42,381 nt of DNA, taken from assembly GCA_964574065.1 (NCBI GenBank), contig CAZNKS010000003.1, positions 1 through 42,381 on the forward strand, read 5' to 3'. Shown piece by piece: positions 13,203 through 34,809 of this stretch. Position numbers and translations under genes: made by a program. The notes beneath the pieces are model-generated. The model saw only the letters and a list, made by a program, of their open reading frames with translations. It was not told the DNA's origin and did no database searches. The DNA is from an uncultured Pseudomonadales bacterium (GTDB taxonomy: Bacteria > Patescibacteriota > Microgenomatia > UBA1400 > UBA12028). Within the stretch, counting starts at the first letter, position 1. Each line of letters begins with the position of its first letter.

Positions 13203-14588
13203 TTATTGCACCTGTATAGCAGCATTTTCTATGACTTTTCTCATCTCTGGAAATGTGAATCCTGCATAAAGATCAGAACGGAAACTTCGAGCTCCTATGC
13301 TTCCACTTTGGGTCGTCTGGGCAAGAACGATCTGATCATTTAAAAAGGTAAAACCTGTCCATGAGAGTTGCTCTACCCTCTCTCGGCTGGTAAGGGGGGT
13401 CATTTTGCCTGAATCCACATCAAACCCAGCAACGGTCTCAATCCCAGGCTTCTTCACATCAATACTCTCAAAGGGAGCCGTCGTTTTACTCAGAAGGTAC
13501 AGCGTATTTCCCTTAAAGGAGGTATCATAAATCATTCCATCCAGCCTGGTAGACCGTTTCTCTTCCAGAGACGGAAAACTGACCACTCTGACTGTAGAAA
13601 CTGACTGCCCTTCTTGGGTATCTTCCCAGGTATTCTTTGTGGTGACCAAATCACCCGTACGAGTCCACGCTTCTACTGAATCTCCACCTCCATTTCCAGC
13701 CTGAAACGGAAGTTCTTTGATTTCTTTTGTCTCGAGGTTAACCACAATTGTATCAGCCCCTTCATAGTATCCTCTGTTCAAGAGGGCATGCTTTCCATCA
13801 AAAGAAAAAATTGGCCGTCGGTATGCATAGACAATACCTCTGTTGTTTTGCTGTGACGGTTCGATGGGACGAGAAAAGATTTGCTCAAGCTTTTGACTAG
13901 CAACTGTGTATGTCCAAAAGGAGTCTGAGGAGGTTATTCCAAGTATCTTCCCGTCAGGAGAAAACCCTACGCTTCGAAGCTCAACTACGTAATCAGCACT
14001 CGCTGTCGCTTTCACAACATCTAATCGCACTATTTCCTGAGGTGACGAAACACTGTTCCCGTTCAATGAGCGTAGATTCACAACGGCTGGCTCAATCCAA
14101 CTGTATCCATTCTCATTCCTCATTTTCTTCCCTTCCAGGGTTGCCAATAGTTTGTTGACTGGAGAATATGCAAAGCCAGCGATTCCATCGTGGGAAATTT
14201 GAATTTTTGCTTCGTTTCCGTTCGTTCTCCTGATCCACACTTGGTTATCTCGGAAAAAAACGATGTCTTCTTTCAATGCAAATGGGGCAGCACTCGGACT
14301 TGCCGAATTTTGGACTGCAAACGGAGAGGATGAAGGCTCAACTGTTGATGGAGTCGGACTTGGCGATGATTGTGGTTTCCTTTGCAATGAGGTAAGAAGC
14401 GAAGAAATGTTCACAGAAGGAACTGTGAAGCGTGCTCCTGTAGCAACAAAAATGAAGAGTCCTATCGTAAAAAATGCTGTCAAAAAGGAGACAAGATAAA
14501 TGTGTGACAGAAGAAAACTCTTTTTTTCTTCTGTACCTGTACTTTCAGCTTGGTGATCGGTTTGTTGAGGTGATGTTTGTTCTTCCAT
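13203..14588 (-). CDS. Hypothetical membrane-anchored protein with a TolB/PD40-like beta-propeller ectodomain
   Basis: After an acidic N-terminus it has one TM helix (LLSHIYLVSFLTAFFTIGLFIFVATG). A Ser/Pro-rich linker follows. Then come repeated PD40-like strands (YSPVNKLLA, GFSPDGKILGI, FSFDGKHALL). The family assignment is by eye only. Confidence 0.6.
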   Translation of the reverse strand: MEEQTSPQQTDHQAESTGTEEKKSFLLSHIYLVSFLTAFFTIGLFIFVATGARFTVPSVNISSLLTSLQRKPQSSPSPTPSTVEPSSSPFAVQNSASPSAAPFALKEDIVFFRDNQVWIRRTNGNEAKIQISHDGIAGFAYSPVNKLLATLEGKKMRNENGYSWIEPAVVNLRSLNGNSVSSPQEIVRLDVVKATASADYVVELRSVGFSPDGKILGITSSDSFWTYTVASQKLEQIFSRPIEPSQQNNRGIVYAYRRPIFSFDGKHALLNRGYYEGADTIVVNLETKEIKELPFQAGNGGGDSVEAWTRTGDLVTTKNTWEDTQEGQSVSTVRVVSFPSLEEKRSTRLDGMIYDTSFKGNTLYLLSKTTAPFESIDVKKPGIETVAGFDVDSGKMTPLTSRERVEQLSWTGFTFLNDQIVLAQTTQSGSIGARSFRSDLYAGFTFPEMRKVIENAAIQVQ

Positions 14589-19610: not shown

Positions 19611-20201
19611 TTAGGCTAATTTGGCTTCCAAAGCATCCAGAATTCCAATCCCCGTGGAGAGTGCCCAGGTTGATGCTTCTTCGTCCACGATCGCACCATG
19701 GACTGCTTTGTTGAGTACGTGCAGCAAGTCAGAAAGCACTACCCCTTCTTCAACTGACAAGATATCCTCACGCACCAGATGGCGCAACAACACGACCGAT
19801 GACGAGAGATTCTCGAGTTCGTTCTGTTTGGCAAGCTTGAGAAGCACACGCTCCACCTCAATCCGCAGCCCTGCCAAAGCCAGATTGGGATCTATAGAAG
19901 CGACTGTTTCAAATGTATAGGTCTTCTTACCAAGTTTTCTTTTTTTGGCGATTAAACCTGAATCTTTAGCGTCTTCCCCAAGCTGTTCTAGCTCCTTGAG
20001 TTCGACTTTCACACCCCAAGGTAGCTCAATGTGTTTGATGATTGGTGCAATCCACGGCAAAAATGCTAGTGCTAGAAGAAGCAAAGCTGTCGTATCAATA
20101 ACTAGATGAGGAAAAAGGATATGAAGCAGTAAAATCCCAAGAGCAATGAGGGAAACTATAACTTTAATTGTATGCCATTCTAACGGAGTTAGGGTTTTCA
20201 T
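19611..20201 (-). CDS. Hypothetical membrane protein (2 TM) with a DUF4145-like helical C-terminal domain
   Basis: The ATG is at 20199-20201 (the track start at 20210 is a TTG). There are two N-terminal TM helices. The C-terminal pattern is LAGLRIEVERVLLKL...LLRHLVREDILS...LLHVLNKAVHG. From memory, this resembles the DUF4145 layout (R..E ... GN.aaH). Confidence 0.55.
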   Translation of the reverse strand: MKTLTPLEWHTIKVIVSLIALGILLLHILFPHLVIDTTALLLLALAFLPWIAPIIKHIELPWGVKVELKELEQLGEDAKDSGLIAKKRKLGKKTYTFETVASIDPNLALAGLRIEVERVLLKLAKQNELENLSSSVVLLRHLVREDILSVEEGVVLSDLLHVLNKAVHGAIVDEEASTWALSTGIGILDALEAKLA

Positions 20202-20210
20202 TAAATCCAA

Positions 20211-27511: not shown

Positions 27512-27547
27512 AACACAAAAAACAAGGCAACGGATTGTTTGCCTTGT
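27512..27547 (-). promoter_or_regulatory. Terminator-like hairpin plus U-tract immediately upstream of the rpoB RBS
   Basis: The minus RNA reads ACAAGGCAA-ACAAUCCG-UUGCCUUGU-UUUUUGUGUUCUUUU, then AGGAAGG and the AUG. The stem is 9 bp. Confidence 0.55.
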
Positions 27548-27672
27548 TCTACTTTTTTAGTACGTTAGAATTGCCAAATCTGACGCATGAGATGCCCAAT
27601 ACTCGCTAGTGTTGCGTTGTGCTTAAAAATTTACGAAACTCTTACCTTGTTTTACACCACTAAAGTCAAATG

Positions 27673-27762: not shown

Positions 27763-29385
27763 TTATTGTTTTGACGGCTTGTGGCTGATAGTACTTCGAA
27801 CTGAATGTGCGATTTCCCAATTTATTTCCCCGATAACTTGAGGTCCTTGAAAGATCATACCCGTTATTAACTGTACAAGGTCAGCGCCCAAGCGCATTTT
27901 TTCTTTGGCGTCTTCTCCCGAGAAAATGCCCCCCGTCCCTATGATGATAAACCGGTTTCCAAACTCTTTCTTTGTTAGAGATATTAAGGCATTCGATCGA
28001 TCGAATGTAGGTTTCCCACTGACCCCACCCTTTTTGGATTTCCAAGATTCCCGATCCATCTTTGTGAGCGACGGATTTTCATGATCTTTGGTCAAATTTC
28101 CACAAATAACCCCTGTTATTGACTTGGCTTTTGCTGCAATTTTGAGGATATCCAAGAGACGAGCAAGCGTTTCCTTTGAGGAAAGTCCATCTTGCAGATC
28201 AATCGGCATCTTCAGAAAGACTGGTTTTGTAATCTGTAGTCTCTCAAAAGCACCAACCAATTTCTGAAAGCGTTTCACATCTGTAAAAGGTTGTCCACCT
28301 TTCGTGTTAGGACAACTGATATTGAGTTCATAGTAGCTATGGGCGACAGGGGATTTCTCGAAGAGAGTGAAGGACTGAATAATGTCGTCGATTTGATCAT
28401 CTACAGAACTGTACTCTCTATTGGTGCTACCGATACTAATACCAATAGGAATTCGAAACTTCTTCCCTTCTAGTTTGTCTATGATAGCTTGTGCTCCCAG
28501 TGACTTAAAACCTTTGTTCACCAAGAGAGCTTTAGAGTCAGGGAAACGAGATAGCATGGGGCGAGTATTTCCTTCATATGGATATCGAGTTACGGTTCCA
28601 ATCGTTGCAAACCCAAACCCAACGTCTGGGAGAATGTCATACAAGTGTGCATCATAATCAAAGCCAGCGGACAGTCCTACAGGATTTGGAAATGTAATTC
28701 CAGCTACTGTCTTTGTCAGTACTGGGCTTTCTACAGCAAAGGAAATTCTCGTGAGAAACCGAGTGAGTGGGAATTTCCCAAGAATTTCGCCGGCCTTCAC
28801 CATCTGGTTATGAACGAGCTCAGGATCCAGAAGAAAAAAGAAAGGTTTGAGTATGTACTGATATGCGAGTGCAAAAAATGCGAGTCGAATAGGATACTCT
28901 TTTTGGTCTTCTTTACTTCGTTTTCGTACAATTGCGAGCAGGTTTACCAAAACAAAAAGCGTGGTACATGCAAGTGCGGAAAGTAAACAATAGAAGCACC
29001 ATGCTTGAATAATGACACCCATAAGGAAAACAAGATACAACGAGAAGAAAAATCCAAAGAGAGTCCCAATTCGAAGCAATCCAAACGTTGAGATCTTCTT
29101 ACCTGCAATAGAAATATGGCGAATTTCGAGAAAATACAAGCTGCTGAGGATGAGGACAAAGGTATAGTACAAAGCTCCTAACAGAGACAAAGGAATTGGG
29201 CCAATGCTTGCCCATTTGCTCTCCAAGACAGCAGCACAGTGAAAACCAGGTGCACAAGGCGGAACAATTCCCGAAAGTTTTTCATAGGTAATATACGCTG
29301 CATCGATAATTCCTAAGAAAGCGACAATGGGAACTAAGAGTTTAACAAACATATTGCCCCATTGTACTCCAACCTTTTCCTTCAT
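27763..29385 (-). CDS. Fusion protein: N-terminal VKOR-family membrane domain joined to a C-terminal class-2-like dihydroorotate dehydrogenase-like flavoprotein domain
   Basis: The VKOR part shows PPCAPGFHCAAVLESKW (loop Cys pair plus Ser) and AWCFYC (CxxC in TM4). The PyrD-like part shows LDPELVH, GLSAGFD, NISCPNT, GGVSGKP and IIGTGGI. The start is uncertain. In-frame candidates are ATG 29352, 29385, 29400, 29469 and 29475, and TTG 29523. None has a good SD. Confidence 0.75.
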   Translation of the reverse strand: MKEKVGVQWGNMFVKLLVPIVAFLGIIDAAYITYEKLSGIVPPCAPGFHCAAVLESKWASIGPIPLSLLGALYYTFVLILSSLYFLEIRHISIAGKKISTFGLLRIGTLFGFFFSLYLVFLMGVIIQAWCFYCLLSALACTTLFVLVNLLAIVRKRSKEDQKEYPIRLAFFALAYQYILKPFFFLLDPELVHNQMVKAGEILGKFPLTRFLTRISFAVESPVLTKTVAGITFPNPVGLSAGFDYDAHLYDILPDVGFGFATIGTVTRYPYEGNTRPMLSRFPDSKALLVNKGFKSLGAQAIIDKLEGKKFRIPIGISIGSTNREYSSVDDQIDDIIQSFTLFEKSPVAHSYYELNISCPNTKGGQPFTDVKRFQKLVGAFERLQITKPVFLKMPIDLQDGLSSKETLARLLDILKIAAKAKSITGVICGNLTKDHENPSLTKMDRESWKSKKGGVSGKPTFDRSNALISLTKKEFGNRFIIIGTGGIFSGEDAKEKMRLGADLVQLITGMIFQGPQVIGEINWEIAHSVRSTISHKPSKQ

Positions 29386-29508
29386 AAGGGTGATCCGCAT
29401 CACATGGGGAGAAAGTTGTCTTAGGTTTAAGAGTACTTCCTCCTTGACCCTTCTTATAATTTGCTGCATAACCATTGGTACACGCACTGGTATCAAGAAA
29501 GGGTGTAT

Positions 29509-30432
29509 ATGATTGGTGATCAAACAAAAGTTGGCATTGTTGGTCTTGGAAATGTGGGGGCAACTGCCGCATACGCATTACTCCTTCATAGCGTTGTAAA
29601 CAAGCTTGTACTCCTGGCTCGCTCAAAAGAGAAAGCGATGGGAGAAAAACTTGATCTTGAGCATGGACTTCCATTCTTAGAGAGTGCTGAGATTGTCGCA
29701 ACTGATGCCTATGAGGACTTACAAGGATGTGATGTAGTTGTTATTACCGCTGGAGCAGCTCAAGCTCCTGGTGAAACCAGGTTGGATCTGGTTGCCAAAA
29801 ACACAGCCATCATCTCAGAAATTGTGCCAAAGATTGTTGCGAATGCACCAGATTGCATTATTGTGGTGGTTGCAAATCCTGTCGATATTTTGACCTATAA
29901 AGCTGCACAGCTTGCTGGTCTTCCTTTTGGCCGTGTGTTTGGTTCAGGAACAATGCTCGATACAGCTCGCTTCCGGGTTCATTTAGCTGAATTTTTAAAA
30001 ATGAATCCCCGCAGTATTCATGCCTATATTTTAGGTGAACATGGAGATAGTTCTTTCCCTGTACTTTCATCTGCATCAACGGGAGGACAGCTTCTTACGA
30101 CTCATCCAAATTTTTCCCAGGCACAAACGCAGGCTGCATTTGACCGCGCGCGGAAAGCTGCGTATGAAATTATTCAAGCAAAAGGTGCGACATACTACGC
30201 CATTGGCGTCGTTATTATGCAGATAGTTAAAACAATTCTTCGTGATAGTAAAACAGTCATTCCAGTTTCAATTCCGTTAACTGATTATTATGGAGTACAT
30301 GATGTTTCTCTTTCTGTTCCCTGCATTGTAGGACGCGGTGGTGTGGAGCAAATTTTGAAAGTTGGACTAAATCAAACTGAACAAGATAATCTACACAAAT
30401 CAGCAGAAACACTCAAACAATTTTTGCAGTAA
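29509..30432 (+). CDS. ldh: L-lactate dehydrogenase (LDH/MDH family)
   Basis: The ATG at 29509 gives MIGDQTKVGIVGLGNVG (Rossmann fold). It carries ITAGAAQAPGETRLDL, with Gln at the LDH-versus-MDH discriminating position, and GEHGDS. The track start at 29461 is a TTG. Confidence 0.85.
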   Translation: MIGDQTKVGIVGLGNVGATAAYALLLHSVVNKLVLLARSKEKAMGEKLDLEHGLPFLESAEIVATDAYEDLQGCDVVVITAGAAQAPGETRLDLVAKNTAIISEIVPKIVANAPDCIIVVVANPVDILTYKAAQLAGLPFGRVFGSGTMLDTARFRVHLAEFLKMNPRSIHAYILGEHGDSSFPVLSSASTGGQLLTTHPNFSQAQTQAAFDRARKAAYEIIQAKGATYYAIGVVIMQIVKTILRDSKTVIPVSIPLTDYYGVHDVSLSVPCIVGRGGVEQILKVGLNQTEQDNLHKSAETLKQFLQ

Positions 30433-32728: not shown

Positions 32729-34768
32729 TTATTGAACAGAAATAGAGATACGCGCAGCATCCTTGGGTAGGGATTTTGAAAATATTGCTAAGAAAACGGG
32801 CCGCACCGTTAAGGTATATGATGCAATAGCCTCTTGGGTATCTAAGAAATGACGAGACTCTTCCAAATTTTTCCCAGCTAGGATCTTTGTGTACTGTGTG
32901 GGTTCTAATGACGGCTTTGCCTTCGAAGACAGTGCTAAGGAAAGTTGAATCTTTTGCTTACTTTCAACTTTTTGACCTGTAATTTCCGTTTTGATCGTAT
33001 CGGCAAGCAATGATGATCCTGCAGGAAGGACGGCGTTGAGTTTCTCTTGAGCAAAATTTGTTAGTTGTGCCTTCGTATATAAAATACCTGATGCTGATGC
33101 GGTTGCAGAAACTGACACAGATGATGCTTCTGCACCAACAGCAGCTGAATATTTTTTATTTGTCACAACCACATCATCGAGTACTACAACTTCTTGCACG
33201 TTATTTGCTTTGGAACGTATTGCATCACCTGCTTGTGCCTTCATATCAACAATCGCTGCCTTTAGTGCATCATCGTGATCTTTTTGAGCAACAGCTGTGG
33301 TTTGCTTACTATTCCCTCCAGTAAAAGGTGACTCACTACGAGCTACAAATGCAGATTTATCAAAACTTCCCACGTTCATTTCTACGTTCTTATCAATATT
33401 ACTGGCTTCGCCATACTCAGCTGCTGTCGCTTTTATGGTTGATTTGCCGTGCACTGTTTCAGAAATTGTAGAGCTTGCAGAAGCCACTGTTGTTTCTTCA
33501 TCGGTAACAAAGGAAAGTTTCCCTGTCTTTAATTGTGTTCCCGCAGGAAACTTTTTGCTTTGTGAGGTTTTGTTGTAAATCGTAACTGTTCCCTTTGCTT
33601 TGTCTCCAATCGTCTTTTTCCCTGTTGCAGGAACTTCCTTGTCCGCTGTAATTTGTGCAGAAGTCATTTCTGCAGGAAGAATATCTTCTGCTGGACTATC
33701 AGTTAACGGATCGAGAGTCACGGTTGCTTGTGATGTTACGTCATACTCTTTCAAAACTAGGGTTACCTGAGCGGAAATCATCCGAGGGATAATGACAAAG
33801 AAACCAAGCAGCGCTCCTAGGACAAGAACAGCAACCAGACCAATAATAGGAGCGAATTTATTTTTAGGGAATGAAAAAGATGGAAGTTTTCGTCTTTGGG
33901 TACTAACTTCATCTTCCACAACGGAAGCTTCAGTTTGCTCAGTGCTTGGGTTGTGGCTGTCTAGGACAATAGGTTCAAATTGAGGCGGAGCTATTGGAGT
34001 ATGAACGGAATTACTCTTTCCTTCTGAAAAAAGTCCTAGTGCTTTCCCTACTTCTTTACCACCTGTTTGTGCCACCGCAAGAATTATCTGATCTGCATCG
34101 ATGCTTTGAATTTTTGGTAATTGTGCAAACCACGATGGCTCCCAAGTGTGGTTTGTTAACTCTTGCGCAATTTGCACGAGTTCATCTTCATCTGCGCAAA
34201 GCGACGATAGTACAATTTGCGTGGGAAGATCACCAGTTTTTAAACGGCTAAAACCTTCGATGAGATCTTGCACAGTTTGACCACTTCTTCCGACTCGAAT
34301 GAGATTACTTGATTGATTGTGACGAATTACTGCAGTTACAAATGCCTGCTCCTCTACAAACACACAGACTGCATGTAAAGGATGAGAACTTGAATCTCGA
34401 AGCTTTGCAATGATTGCTTCCAAGGTTACGACAAATCCCACCGAATGGAGTTCAAGCTTCTGGGTTATAGCTTTTAACACTGGTTTTCTGGAAGTAGTAA
34501 TTCCCAAACCAGTCACCCAGTCATCAGGTAGAGCAAACAATACTTCACTTGCTGACAGGTGGTCAGGGAAAGATGCAATTGCTGTATCAACTGCTTCGAG
34601 TAAAGACTCTTCGTTTGAAGTGTCCCACACGATAAGGTCGCTCACCTGGTCCACAAGAATTTGTTCACCATCTATATGCCAAACAGCTGCGAGCGCTACT
34701 CCTGGAGAGATAGCAACCGCATACACATAGTGTTTCGATTCTTTGGTTCCAAAAAGCGGAAATTTCAT
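32729..34768 (-). CDS. Large hypothetical bitopic membrane protein (679 aa) immediately upstream of the sortase gene
   Basis: I chose the ATG at 34766-34768 (MKFPLFGTKESKHYVYAVAIS...). It has a cytoplasmic N-domain of about 310 aa with a weak FtsA/PilM-like (actin-fold) appearance. One TM helix follows (FAPIIGLVAVLVLGALLGFFVII). The ectodomain is about 340 aa and rich in T, S, A and K. Its stop lies 3 nt before the sortase ATG. There is no C-terminal LPxTG signal. Confidence 0.6.
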   Translation of the reverse strand: MKFPLFGTKESKHYVYAVAISPGVALAAVWHIDGEQILVDQVSDLIVWDTSNEESLLEAVDTAIASFPDHLSASEVLFALPDDWVTGLGITTSRKPVLKAITQKLELHSVGFVVTLEAIIAKLRDSSSHPLHAVCVFVEEQAFVTAVIRHNQSSNLIRVGRSGQTVQDLIEGFSRLKTGDLPTQIVLSSLCADEDELVQIAQELTNHTWEPSWFAQLPKIQSIDADQIILAVAQTGGKEVGKALGLFSEGKSNSVHTPIAPPQFEPIVLDSHNPSTEQTEASVVEDEVSTQRRKLPSFSFPKNKFAPIIGLVAVLVLGALLGFFVIIPRMISAQVTLVLKEYDVTSQATVTLDPLTDSPAEDILPAEMTSAQITADKEVPATGKKTIGDKAKGTVTIYNKTSQSKKFPAGTQLKTGKLSFVTDEETTVASASSTISETVHGKSTIKATAAEYGEASNIDKNVEMNVGSFDKSAFVARSESPFTGGNSKQTTAVAQKDHDDALKAAIVDMKAQAGDAIRSKANNVQEVVVLDDVVVTNKKYSAAVGAEASSVSVSATASASGILYTKAQLTNFAQEKLNAVLPAGSSLLADTIKTEITGQKVESKQKIQLSLALSSKAKPSLEPTQYTKILAGKNLEESRHFLDTQEAIASYTLTVRPVFLAIFSKSLPKDAARISISVQ

Positions 34769-34770
34769 AT

Positions 34771-34805
34771 GTACCACCAAAAGCCCCCGATGGCTTTGGA
34801 GGTAC
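34771..34805 (-). promoter_or_regulatory. Strong 5-prime UTR hairpin ending 2 nt before the start codon of the 679-aa gene
   Basis: The minus RNA forms GUACCUCCAAAGCC-AUCGGG-GGCUUUUGGUGGUAC: 13 bp with one mismatch and one bulge. It encloses the only SD-like purine run (GGUGG). Confidence 0.45.
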
Positions 34806-34809
34806 ATTC

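Follow-up and report, generated by a model that had tools for sequence, protein, structure and literature searches.

Why would one polypeptide carry both a VKOR membrane domain and a dihydroorotate dehydrogenase (DHODH)-like flavin domain? The question is raised by a gene on the minus strand of contig CAZNKS010000003.1 (assembly GCA_964574065.1), of which we analysed positions 1 to 42,381, a stretch of 42,381 nucleotides that we call the window. We identified both domains and their topology, found their redox and catalytic residues conserved and the substrate pocket remodelled, and observed a conserved genetic coupling of the two halves in candidate phyla radiation (CPR) bacteria. Tentatively, we read the fusion as a two-module, quinone-mediated transmembrane redox enzyme, in which the VKOR half would reduce a quinone and the flavin domain would reoxidise it onto a cytoplasmic acceptor.

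Gene structure and the VKOR half

In the list of open reading frames (ORFs) of the window, one uninterrupted ORF at 27763..29523 on the minus strand covers both domains. The original prediction had taken this whole frame as the gene. The frame stands, but its start does not. The real start is most likely the ATG at 29352, minus strand, because homologues (495-550 amino acids) begin with MK..LL directly ahead of the first transmembrane (TM) helix. A GGAG lies about 14 nt 5' of this ATG. The 57-codon extension of the longest ORF is absent from every homologue, overlaps the longest ldh ORF and is probably untranslated. Residues are numbered on the 529-amino-acid protein from ATG 29352 unless the long ORF is named.

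27763..29352, minus strand: VKOR/DHODH-like fusion, most likely coding sequence, 529 amino acids plus stop
29353..29523, minus strand: 57-codon extension at the 5' end of the longest ORF, from a TTG, in the divergent intergenic region shared with ldh
28945..29331, minus strand: VKOR domain, four-helix TM bundle, amino acids 8-136 (PF07884, AlphaFold2 (AF2) helices)
29212..29262, minus strand: extracytoplasmic loop motif PPCAPGFHCAAVLESKW with shuttle cysteines C33 and C39 and with S45 (aligns with the loop Cys pair of 4nv6)
28987..29004, minus strand: AWCFYC, redox-active CxxC (C119, C122) at the outer end of TM4 (aligns with FCMYC of Synechococcus VKOR)
28900..28926, minus strand: basic stop-transfer linker RKRSKEDQK after TM4, which puts the remainder of the protein in the cytoplasm

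The N-terminal half matched Pfam VKOR PF07884 (E=5e-21, amino acids 65-193 of the long ORF) and aligned to the Synechococcus VKOR structures 4nv2/4nv6, with whose catalytic cysteines its four cysteines match one-to-one. All sequence hallmarks of the VKOR family were present, namely the profile match, four helices, two loop cysteines with a Ser after them, and a CxxC motif in the final core helix. AF2 placed helices at amino acids 2-26 (TM1), 55-74 (TM2), 89-115 (TM3) and 120-145 (TM4), with W118-C119-x-x-C122 at the outer end of TM4. Hydropathy, AF2 and charge together predict that the N-terminus lies inside, the C33/C39/S45 loop outside, and the loop of amino acids 75-90 and RKRSKEDQK inside. 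The loops at amino acids 75-90 and 143-151 are rich in K/R and the Cys-bearing loops are poor in them, which fits the positive-inside rule.

We aligned 69 fused homologues and found C33, C39, S45, W118, C119 and C122 invariant in 69/69. In a larger set of about 132 VKOR-bearing sequences, each of the four cysteines was kept in 129-132. By these sequence features, the VKOR half appears to be redox-competent and more than a mere anchor.

The DHODH-like half has a class 2 fold and a remodelled active site

The C-terminal half matched Pfam DHO_dh PF01180 (E=5e-50, amino acids 269-573 of the long ORF). Among NCBIfam models, class-2 quinone-dependent DHODHs ranked highest, far above the class-1 models (NF003652, 268.7 bits against a cut-off of 267; TIGR01036, 217 against 200), and they matched from amino acid ~217-225 of the long ORF. 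HMMER comparison with PDB sequences gave E=1e-37 to 4e-44 for the class-2 enzymes of M. tuberculosis, A. baumannii, human and E. coli, and about 1e-7 for class 1A. An AF2 single-chain model built on the 69-homologue alignment was of high confidence (pLDDT 93.6, pTM 0.90). Foldseek aligned ~350-380 columns of it to human, E. coli, H. pylori and Mtb DHODH (template modelling score, TMt, 0.80-0.89), N-terminal helices included.

28738..28890, minus strand: class-2 N-terminal helical domain (quinone tunnel, membrane association), amino acids ~155-205, with LDPELVH (H181)
27805..28719, minus strand: TIM barrel of DHO_dh that binds flavin mononucleotide (FMN), amino acids 212-516 (PF01180, AF2)
28654..28656, minus strand: Y233 at the position of the universal DHODH Lys (HMMER alignment, gfdK against gfdY)
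28513..28521, minus strand: V278-N279-K280, with Val for a substrate Asn (human N145) and K280 as the putative relocated Lys
28312..28314, minus strand: C347 at the catalytic-base position, Ser in class 2 and Cys in class 1A (HMMER, vsSpn against isCpn); invariant
28093..28095, minus strand: L420 for the substrate/FMN Thr, human T285 (HMMER, NTT against NLT)

The proposal of a VKOR domain fused to a class-2-like DHODH, with its boundaries and topology, was thus borne out by profiles, structure prediction and alignments. All of the motifs on which it had been based are present (PPCAPGFHCAAVLESKW, AWCFYC, RKRSKEDQK, LDPELVH, GLSAGFDY, NISCPNT, GGVSGKP, IIGTGGI).

The universal Lys replaced by Y233 corresponds to K66 in E. 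coli, K100 in human and K43 in L. lactis. Among 128 fused sequences, residue 233 is Tyr in 125 and Trp in 3, and residue 420 is Leu in 127. V278-N279-K280 is invariant in 69/69 fused homologues. E. coli has N111 and T247 in place of V278 and L420, C130 of L. lactis aligns with C347, and the position of human Y356 is occupied by I496 (LYT to LIT). These equivalences, drawn from E. coli, human and L. lactis reference sequences, agree with the HMMER-PDB alignments. The substrate pocket departs from all canonical DHODHs at N145 (Val), T285 (Leu) and K100 (Tyr), residues that, with others of their kind, we take from the structural literature and UniProt annotation to be orotate or FMN contacts.

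Other features of the site are kept. These are the FMN motifs K381, S445-G446 and G474-G475, the residues N344, N349 and N419 out of four substrate Asn, and the quinone-site residues H181 (human H56) and R269 (human R136), which are invariant in fused and unfused Tyr-type sequences (defined below) and nearly so in the other groups. Changed and retained residues alike are invariant or nearly so across the fused family in the 69-homologue alignment.

The original prediction had named three deviations from class 2. The Cys base and the Lys-to-Tyr change were confirmed by the HMMER alignments to solved DHODHs. The third, NxxGFNN read as NKGFKS, is also a true deviation but was given in the wrong register; V-N-K-G-F-K-S aligns with N-R-M/Y-G-F-N-N/S, and the Asn column holds Val. 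All three stand, and two further changes, Thr to Leu (NTT to NLT) and Tyr to Ile (LYT to LIT), had been missed.

Compared with class 2 DHODHs (E. coli PyrD 1F76, human 1D3G, M. tuberculosis 8OFW), the DHODH-like half shares ~30% identity, the full fold with FMN barrel and N-terminal helical domain, the FMN motifs and the three substrate Asn. It differs from them in its Cys base and in the Lys, Asn and Thr positions (C347, Y233, V278, L420), in Ile for Y356, in the Lys at 280, in its fusion to VKOR and in its lack of a pyr context. K280 and N279 may stand in for the canonical Lys and Asn. With class 1A enzymes (Lactococcus lactis DHODA, Trypanosoma cruzi DHOD) it shares the catalytic Cys. Those enzymes, however, are soluble proteins with no N-terminal quinone domain, and their Lys and Asn are the canonical ones; class 1 is not its closest match, and the DHODH-like half is not class 1A.

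The fusion is common in Microgenomates-type CPR

We searched 5.8 billion proteins, and all of the 120 best matches carried both Pfam domains, at 49-64% identity. Those with a named source come from Woesebacteria, Pacebacteria, Cerribacteria and Patescibacteria. When one genome per GTDB species was scanned, 451 genomes of Microgenomates-type CPR encoded a relative. Related genomes had been proposed as a place to look for the same fusion, and the protein search found it in all of the best matches.

The original prediction had also raised the concern that two separate genes were joined by an assembly chimera or a frameshift. Some relatives do encode the halves separately, which would fit such an artefact. 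Against it stand the continuous ORF, the 69 fused homologues that align across the domain junction without disruption, the 120 best matches fused in independent assemblies, and the confident single-chain model. Because the fusion is conserved across hundreds of independent assemblies, a chimera is excluded for practical purposes.

The architecture had not been recognised from the sequence. A full-text literature search found no paper describing a VKOR-DHODH-like fusion. Among Microgenomates-type CPR the fusion is common rather than rare, and automatic annotation routinely calls it 'quinone-dependent dihydroorotate dehydrogenase'. Many copies are already in databases under that name. A previous study of CPR treated MdbA-like proteins and VKOR, and not the VKOR-DHODH architecture (Meheust et al. 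2019, PMC6744442).

A larger class-2-like clade and a coupled lysine swap

An exhaustive HMMER search of 1.84 billion cluster representatives gave 9752 matches. We compared four active-site positions (Lys/Tyr, Asn/Val, Ser/Cys and Thr/Leu) in a signature set of 246 sequences, made up of the query, three references and the database matches of at least 330 amino acids from both protein searches. The Tyr-Val-Cys-Leu signature (Tyr-type) occurred in ~128 sequences fused to VKOR and ~22 unfused ones. The other signatures were found in unfused proteins: Lys-Val-Cys-Leu (Lys-type) in ~58, Lys-Asn-Cys-Thr in ~18 and the canonical Lys-Asn-Ser-Thr in ~19.

By these signatures, the fusion is nested in a broader class-2-like clade that is set apart by Val, Cys, Leu and Ile. 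Its members with names are Peribacteraceae, Uhrbacteria, Magasanikbacteria and Patescibacteria among CPR, and Woesearchaeota, a DPANN archaeon. The unfused CPR/DPANN proteins of this clade (NF003652 type) share the four substitutions and the N-terminal helices with the fusion. They differ from it in that they keep the canonical Lys, usually have Tyr at 280, are mostly unfused and stand in variable gene contexts.

The Lys missing from position 233 is matched by one at position 280, which falls within the N-x-x-G-F substrate loop. Lys is found at 280 in 150/150 sequences without Lys at 233 (147 Tyr, 3 Trp), and in 0/95 sequences that have Lys at 233, where Tyr or Met mostly stands instead. Since loss at 233 is always coupled to Lys at 280, the simplest reading would be that the active-site Lys was relocated rather than lost. 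The replacement of Lys by Tyr in the GxDK motif was thus correctly predicted, but it appears to mark a move of the Lys and not a loss. Across the clade, the residue after Val278 is always a hydrogen-bond donor (N, Y, H or W). In a neighbour-joining tree, the Tyr-type is not strictly monophyletic, with two outliers among the Lys-type; this tree is too crude to count Lys/Tyr swaps.

Two kinds of relative stand out in this family. About 18 representatives have Cys at the class-2-like catalytic base together with otherwise canonical Lys, Asn and Thr, contrary to the textbook rule of Ser. One of these Lys-Asn-Cys-Thr proteins (L107:2705-4516) is encoded directly upstream of a pyrE homologue. Because such proteins exist, and one lies beside pyrE, the Cys base alone is not diagnostic of a new function. 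The clade also includes other fusions (P0134, P0138, P0228). P0134 has an N-terminal PAP2 phosphatase domain; a C-terminal cytidylyltransferase-like domain is also found in this group, as is a 705-amino-acid Magasanikbacteria protein with a ~360-amino-acid C-terminal region without a Pfam match.

The two halves are genetically coupled

We clustered the neighbours within 10 kb on either side of each match in 83 loci. Most of these loci encode the fused form. Where the halves are split, they remain together. L061 and L077 carry separate VKOR (148-158 amino acids) and DHOD-like (~360 amino acids) genes with a 4-nt ATGA overlap, and in L083 an 18-nt gap separates the two. In L047, L054, L057 and L081 the cluster is rearranged and consists of the DHOD-like gene, a divergent Crp/Fnr-family regulator, the VKOR gene and an overlapping L-lactate dehydrogenase gene.

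Among Lys-type relatives, P0161 is itself fused to VKOR, and in L095 the next gene downstream encodes a VKOR (Pfam E=2.7e-12). In a Woesearchaeota contig (L088:2804-5145, JACRPI010000014.1), a Lys-type DHOD-like gene, a UbiE/MenG-like methyltransferase gene and a stand-alone VKOR gene stand in a row. VKOR adjacency was seen in only 2/27 Lys-type loci, so the tight VKOR link is specific to the Tyr-type.

The original prediction had connected the two halves through a quinone. In part this is supported. Fusion, translationally coupled genes, the rearranged cluster and the near neighbours in a DPANN archaeon lend real comparative support to a functional coupling of the halves, which would run through the quinone.

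These loci also bear on the idea that the VKOR part serves as a membrane anchor only, with no redox coupling of the halves. Relatives with different membrane or accessory fusions, such as the PAP2 protein P0134, would fit a simple anchor. An anchor does not explain why the four VKOR cysteines, S45 and W118 never vary among the 69 fused homologues, nor why VKOR stays adjacent where the genes are split, and we hold this idea to be very improbable.

Several neighbours recur around these genes. The Crp/Fnr-family regulator (cNMP_binding + HTH_Crp_2; L047:11107-11766, L054, L057, L081) is found near ldh, VKOR and DHOD-like genes, and also in the pattern C loci L007, L009, L036 and L039; none is encoded in the window. 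This suggests that ldh, VKOR and the DHOD-like gene are under common Crp/Fnr-type regulation. The ldh gene (neighbour-family 9) adjoins the fusion or the split genes in 12 loci, in four arrangements.

The methyltransferase of the Woesearchaeota trio falls below family cut-offs. The trio itself, in a DPANN archaeon, echoes the bacterial fusion across domains of life. In a Peribacteraceae contig of 1.38 Mb (L084:4701-6104), a UbiB/ABC1-family kinase is encoded ~4 kb upstream of a Lys-type DHOD-like gene. The UbiB/ABC1 family is linked to quinone handling, and this Peribacteraceae lineage is not known to respire.

In 41/83 loci, a gene for an S-adenosylmethionine (SAM) methyltransferase lies immediately upstream of the fusion. 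We considered it as a UbiE/UbiG-like quinone methylase and rejected it, as its profile matches were weak and generic. Its sole resemblance to the UbiE-like methylase of Woesearchaeota is the SAM motif, and it stands back-to-back with a bona fide Elp3. We regard it as lineage synteny, possibly a tRNA methylase, and did not count it as evidence. The order RecQ-MazG-Elp3<>MTase-fusion-VIT1 is seen in L001:7303-9949 and ~40 other loci, where Elp3 (TIGR01211, 453 bits) is back-to-back with a ~255-amino-acid class I SAM methyltransferase directly upstream of the fusion. The two may form a CPR pair of Elp3 and tRNA methylase.

Is the DHODH-like half a pyrimidine enzyme?

No pyr gene was found in the window. 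Queries for PyrB, PyrC, PyrE, PyrF and CarA (E. coli and Bacillus sequences) found none in the 1331 ORFs that surround the 83 Tyr-type loci, whether fused, split or unfused, where one upp only was seen, and none around 27 Lys-type loci of the same clade. As a positive control, the same queries detected pyrB, pyrC, pyrE or pyrF beside 7 canonical class-2 loci. Because the loci are not independent samples, and pyrD often lies apart from the rest of the pyr genes, the missing neighbours are only supportive of a role other than PyrD.

Published genome counts point the same way. DHO_dh was counted in 894 CPR and 959 non-CPR bacterial genomes, CarB in 401 and 862, CarA in 324 and 807, and ATCase/OTCase in 547 and 1056 (Meheust et al. 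2019, Supplementary Data 1, PMC6744442). Among CPR genomes, DHO_dh is about twice as frequent as CarA or CarB, and the non-CPR counts are similar to each other. These numbers suggest that many CPR hold DHO_dh without CarA/CarB. De novo nucleotide synthesis is reported to be absent from most CPR (PMC5113843; PMC11809585).

Alternatively, the flavin domain is a genuine quinone-dependent PyrD, remodelled but functional, fused to an active VKOR. Both would reduce the same scarce scavenged quinone, the fusion would merely co-localise two quinone users, and the quinol would be reoxidised elsewhere, for example by O2 or by some oxidase. We consider this rather unlikely. In its favour, the best profile matches are class-2 DHODH equivalogs and the class-2 fold is complete; the NF003652 equivalog cut-off is passed, narrowly here and clearly by the Lys-type relatives. 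With its three substrate Asn, the FMN Lys K381, the catalytic Cys and a Lys apparently moved to 280, the domain could bind dihydroorotate or orotate, and the hydrogen-bond donor after Val278 is kept across the clade. The Cys-base protein beside pyrE (L107) has a canonical pocket.

Peribacteraceae metagenome-assembled genomes (MAGs) carry a Lys-type member of the clade, and genomes of the class Peribacteria (Ca. Peribacter riflensis) are reported to encode nucleotide synthesis that is essentially complete (PMC4736985). Three Lys-type loci adjoin ribonucleotide reductase, a hint of nucleotide metabolism, and the clade may include genuine working DHODHs. The same points weigh against our proposal of a quinol-oxidising flavin domain, as does the pocket itself, where Val and Leu would weaken binding of the second carboxylate of fumarate, so that fumarate itself is uncertain as the acceptor.

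A working PyrD has difficulties of its own. We see no obvious selective reason to fuse two quinone reducers, or to keep their genes adjacent, specifically where a respiratory chain is lacking. Around 110 loci of the clade no pyr genes were found, whereas they lie beside the 7 canonical class-2 loci, and DHO_dh outnumbers CarA/CarB in CPR genomes. In addition, two residues conserved in all DHODH classes are altered at their canonical positions.

A proposed route from surface thiols to a cytoplasmic acceptor

VKOR and class-2 DHODH both normally reduce quinone, and in respiring organisms they share the quinone pool. We know of no case of VKOR fused to class-2 DHODH in organisms with respiratory chains. 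In CPR and DPANN without such chains, fusion and adjacency are repeated, and this is most easily understood if one quinone links the halves as redox partners. Fusing two quinone reducers would pay only if one of them runs as a quinol oxidiser. Since the step from thiol to quinone is the thermodynamically natural one for VKOR, the flavin module would be that oxidiser. Quinone use, the direction of electron flow and the acceptor are all inferred.

In the proposed enzyme, electrons would pass from an extracytoplasmic thiol oxidoreductase of the DsbA/MdbA type to C33/C39 and on to C119-x-x-C122, which would reduce a bound quinone. The quinone would probably be scavenged, because CPR bacteria are not known to make quinones; they are reported to lack respiratory chains as well. 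The quinol would then enter the N-terminal helical tunnel, where H181 and R269 are conserved, and reduce FMN. The reduced FMN would in turn pass its electrons to an unsaturated, carboxylate-bearing acceptor in the cytoplasm; C347 would donate the proton, and K280, N344, N349 and N419 would hold the substrate. The net outcome would be a self-contained electron sink for disulfide-bond formation.

The invariance of K280, the catalytic Cys and the Asn residues favours a specific organic substrate over O2. To judge by the Val and Leu substitutions, this substrate may not resemble orotate on its imide edge. A precedent for such a flavin domain acting as a reductase is Cys-base class 1A DHODH, which reduces fumarate at the same site that oxidises dihydroorotate.

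No gene for a DsbA, MdbA or thioredoxin partner was found in the window or consistently near the 83 loci; one was seen in two related loci only. MdbA-like oxidoreductases are reported to be widespread in CPR, with VKOR as their likely reoxidant (Meheust et al. 2019, PMC6744442).

Electrons might also flow the other way. The flavin domain would then oxidise dihydroorotate or a related donor, and the VKOR cysteines would use the quinol to reduce extracytoplasmic disulfides, which would give the dehydrogenase an electron sink or the cell surface reducing power. Overall, electrons would run downhill from dihydroorotate (about -258 mV) to a protein disulfide (about -120 mV), the two modules act genetically as partners, and the DHODH-like catalytic residues are kept, all of which this direction would accommodate. 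It is nevertheless improbable. The VKOR and DsbB enzymes that have been characterised all carry electrons from thiol to quinone, and with menaquinone or ubiquinone the step from quinol to disulfide is energetically unfavourable. CPR already encode reductive pathways of the CcdA/DsbD type, for example a DsbD_TM-Redoxin gene in L003, and the evidence for orphan DHO_dh in CPR weighs here too.

Our preferred reading, with electrons passing inward from the cell surface through a quinol-oxidising flavin domain, can be compared with known systems. The VKOR half resembles bacterial VKORs (the Synechococcus VKOR-Trx fusion 3KP9/4NV2, and those of M. tuberculosis and Actinomyces oris) in its four-helix bundle, its loop Cys pair followed by Ser and its TM4 CxxC, and bacterial VKOR fusions are a precedent for attaching a redox partner domain. 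In the known fusions, however, a thioredoxin-like domain, the electron donor, is placed outside the membrane by a fifth helix. Here no fifth helix is present, and the acceptor (quinone) side is taken by a cytoplasmic FMN enzyme.

The E. coli DsbA-DsbB-quinone pathway feeds terminal oxidases or, anaerobically, menaquinone-dependent reductases such as fumarate reductase. The proposed logic is like this route, from extracytoplasmic thiols to a membrane CxxC protein, a quinone, a quinol-oxidising enzyme and a terminal acceptor. The E. coli components are separate and need a full respiratory chain, whereas here the proposed quinol-oxidising DHODH-type flavoprotein is fused to the thiol oxidase. A further step, which we regard as possible although more doubtful than assured, is that the DHODH-like half has given up its pyrimidine role altogether to become a quinol-oxidising reductase, and that the fusion is a complete respiration-independent oxidative-folding machine working on a single captive scavenged quinone.

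Genomic context of the window

The divergent neighbour had been predicted to be ldh, and its profile match agrees with this. The order ruvX-mltG-ldh<>fusion-rpoB-rpoC is common to the window and several Woesebacteria/Cerribacteria-like loci.

29509..30432, plus strand: divergent neighbour, NAD-dependent L-lactate dehydrogenase, ldh (TIGR01771, 359 bits against a cut-off of 303.55)
27519..27550, minus strand: terminator-like hairpin with T-run in the interval between the fusion gene and rpoB (consensus scan, 12-bp stem)

The hairpin at 27519..27550 is only suggestive of a terminator. It has T-runs on both strands and overlaps the start of the longest rpoB ORF (TTG 27530), the true rpoB start probably being a downstream Met. 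A promoter scan of the divergent fusion/ldh region gave matches no more numerous than in shuffled sequence.

With a GC content of ~43%, the window looks like a piece of a CPR/Patescibacteria genome of the Microgenomates type, from an ultra-small bacterium. It also encodes YceG/MltG, a sortase, FtsK and a XerC-type recombinase. From translations and synteny with the annotated P0003 locus, we infer a ribosomal-protein cluster with rpoB and rpoC; ruvX is assigned by synteny with that locus. Many contigs titled 'uncultured Pseudomonadales', 'Gammaproteobacteria', 'Methylococcaceae' or 'Limisphaerales' share the CPR-type synteny of Pacebacteria/Woesebacteria loci (L005, L007, L012-L016 and others), and the taxonomic labels of such MAG records look wrong.

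Three ORFs of the window, all on the minus strand, have no Pfam match (32729-34807, 13203-14588 and 19611-20210; 692, 461 and 199 amino acids). The 692-amino-acid ORF adjoins the sortase gene and holds only 2 Cys. At the syntenic locus of a relative, a Pfam-less gene of the same size lies beside the sortase gene.

Implications for CPR and for the DHO_dh family

CPR/Patescibacteria make up a large share of bacterial diversity, and they build pili and cysteine-containing surface proteins. The conserved fusion of VKOR with a flavoenzyme offers a concrete, testable answer to how respiration-less CPR keep VKOR oxidised. If true, the proposal would explain disulfide-bond formation without an electron-transport chain in CPR and some DPANN archaea, and it would add a new enzymatic activity to the DHO_dh fold. 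Annotation as 'quinone-dependent DHODH' of a large CPR/DPANN clade with this remodelled pocket may inflate predicted pyrimidine biosynthesis. Either outcome would be informative, since the protein would be a new quinol:acceptor reductase or a DHODH that tolerates the loss of two 'universal' residues and is coupled to disulfide formation.

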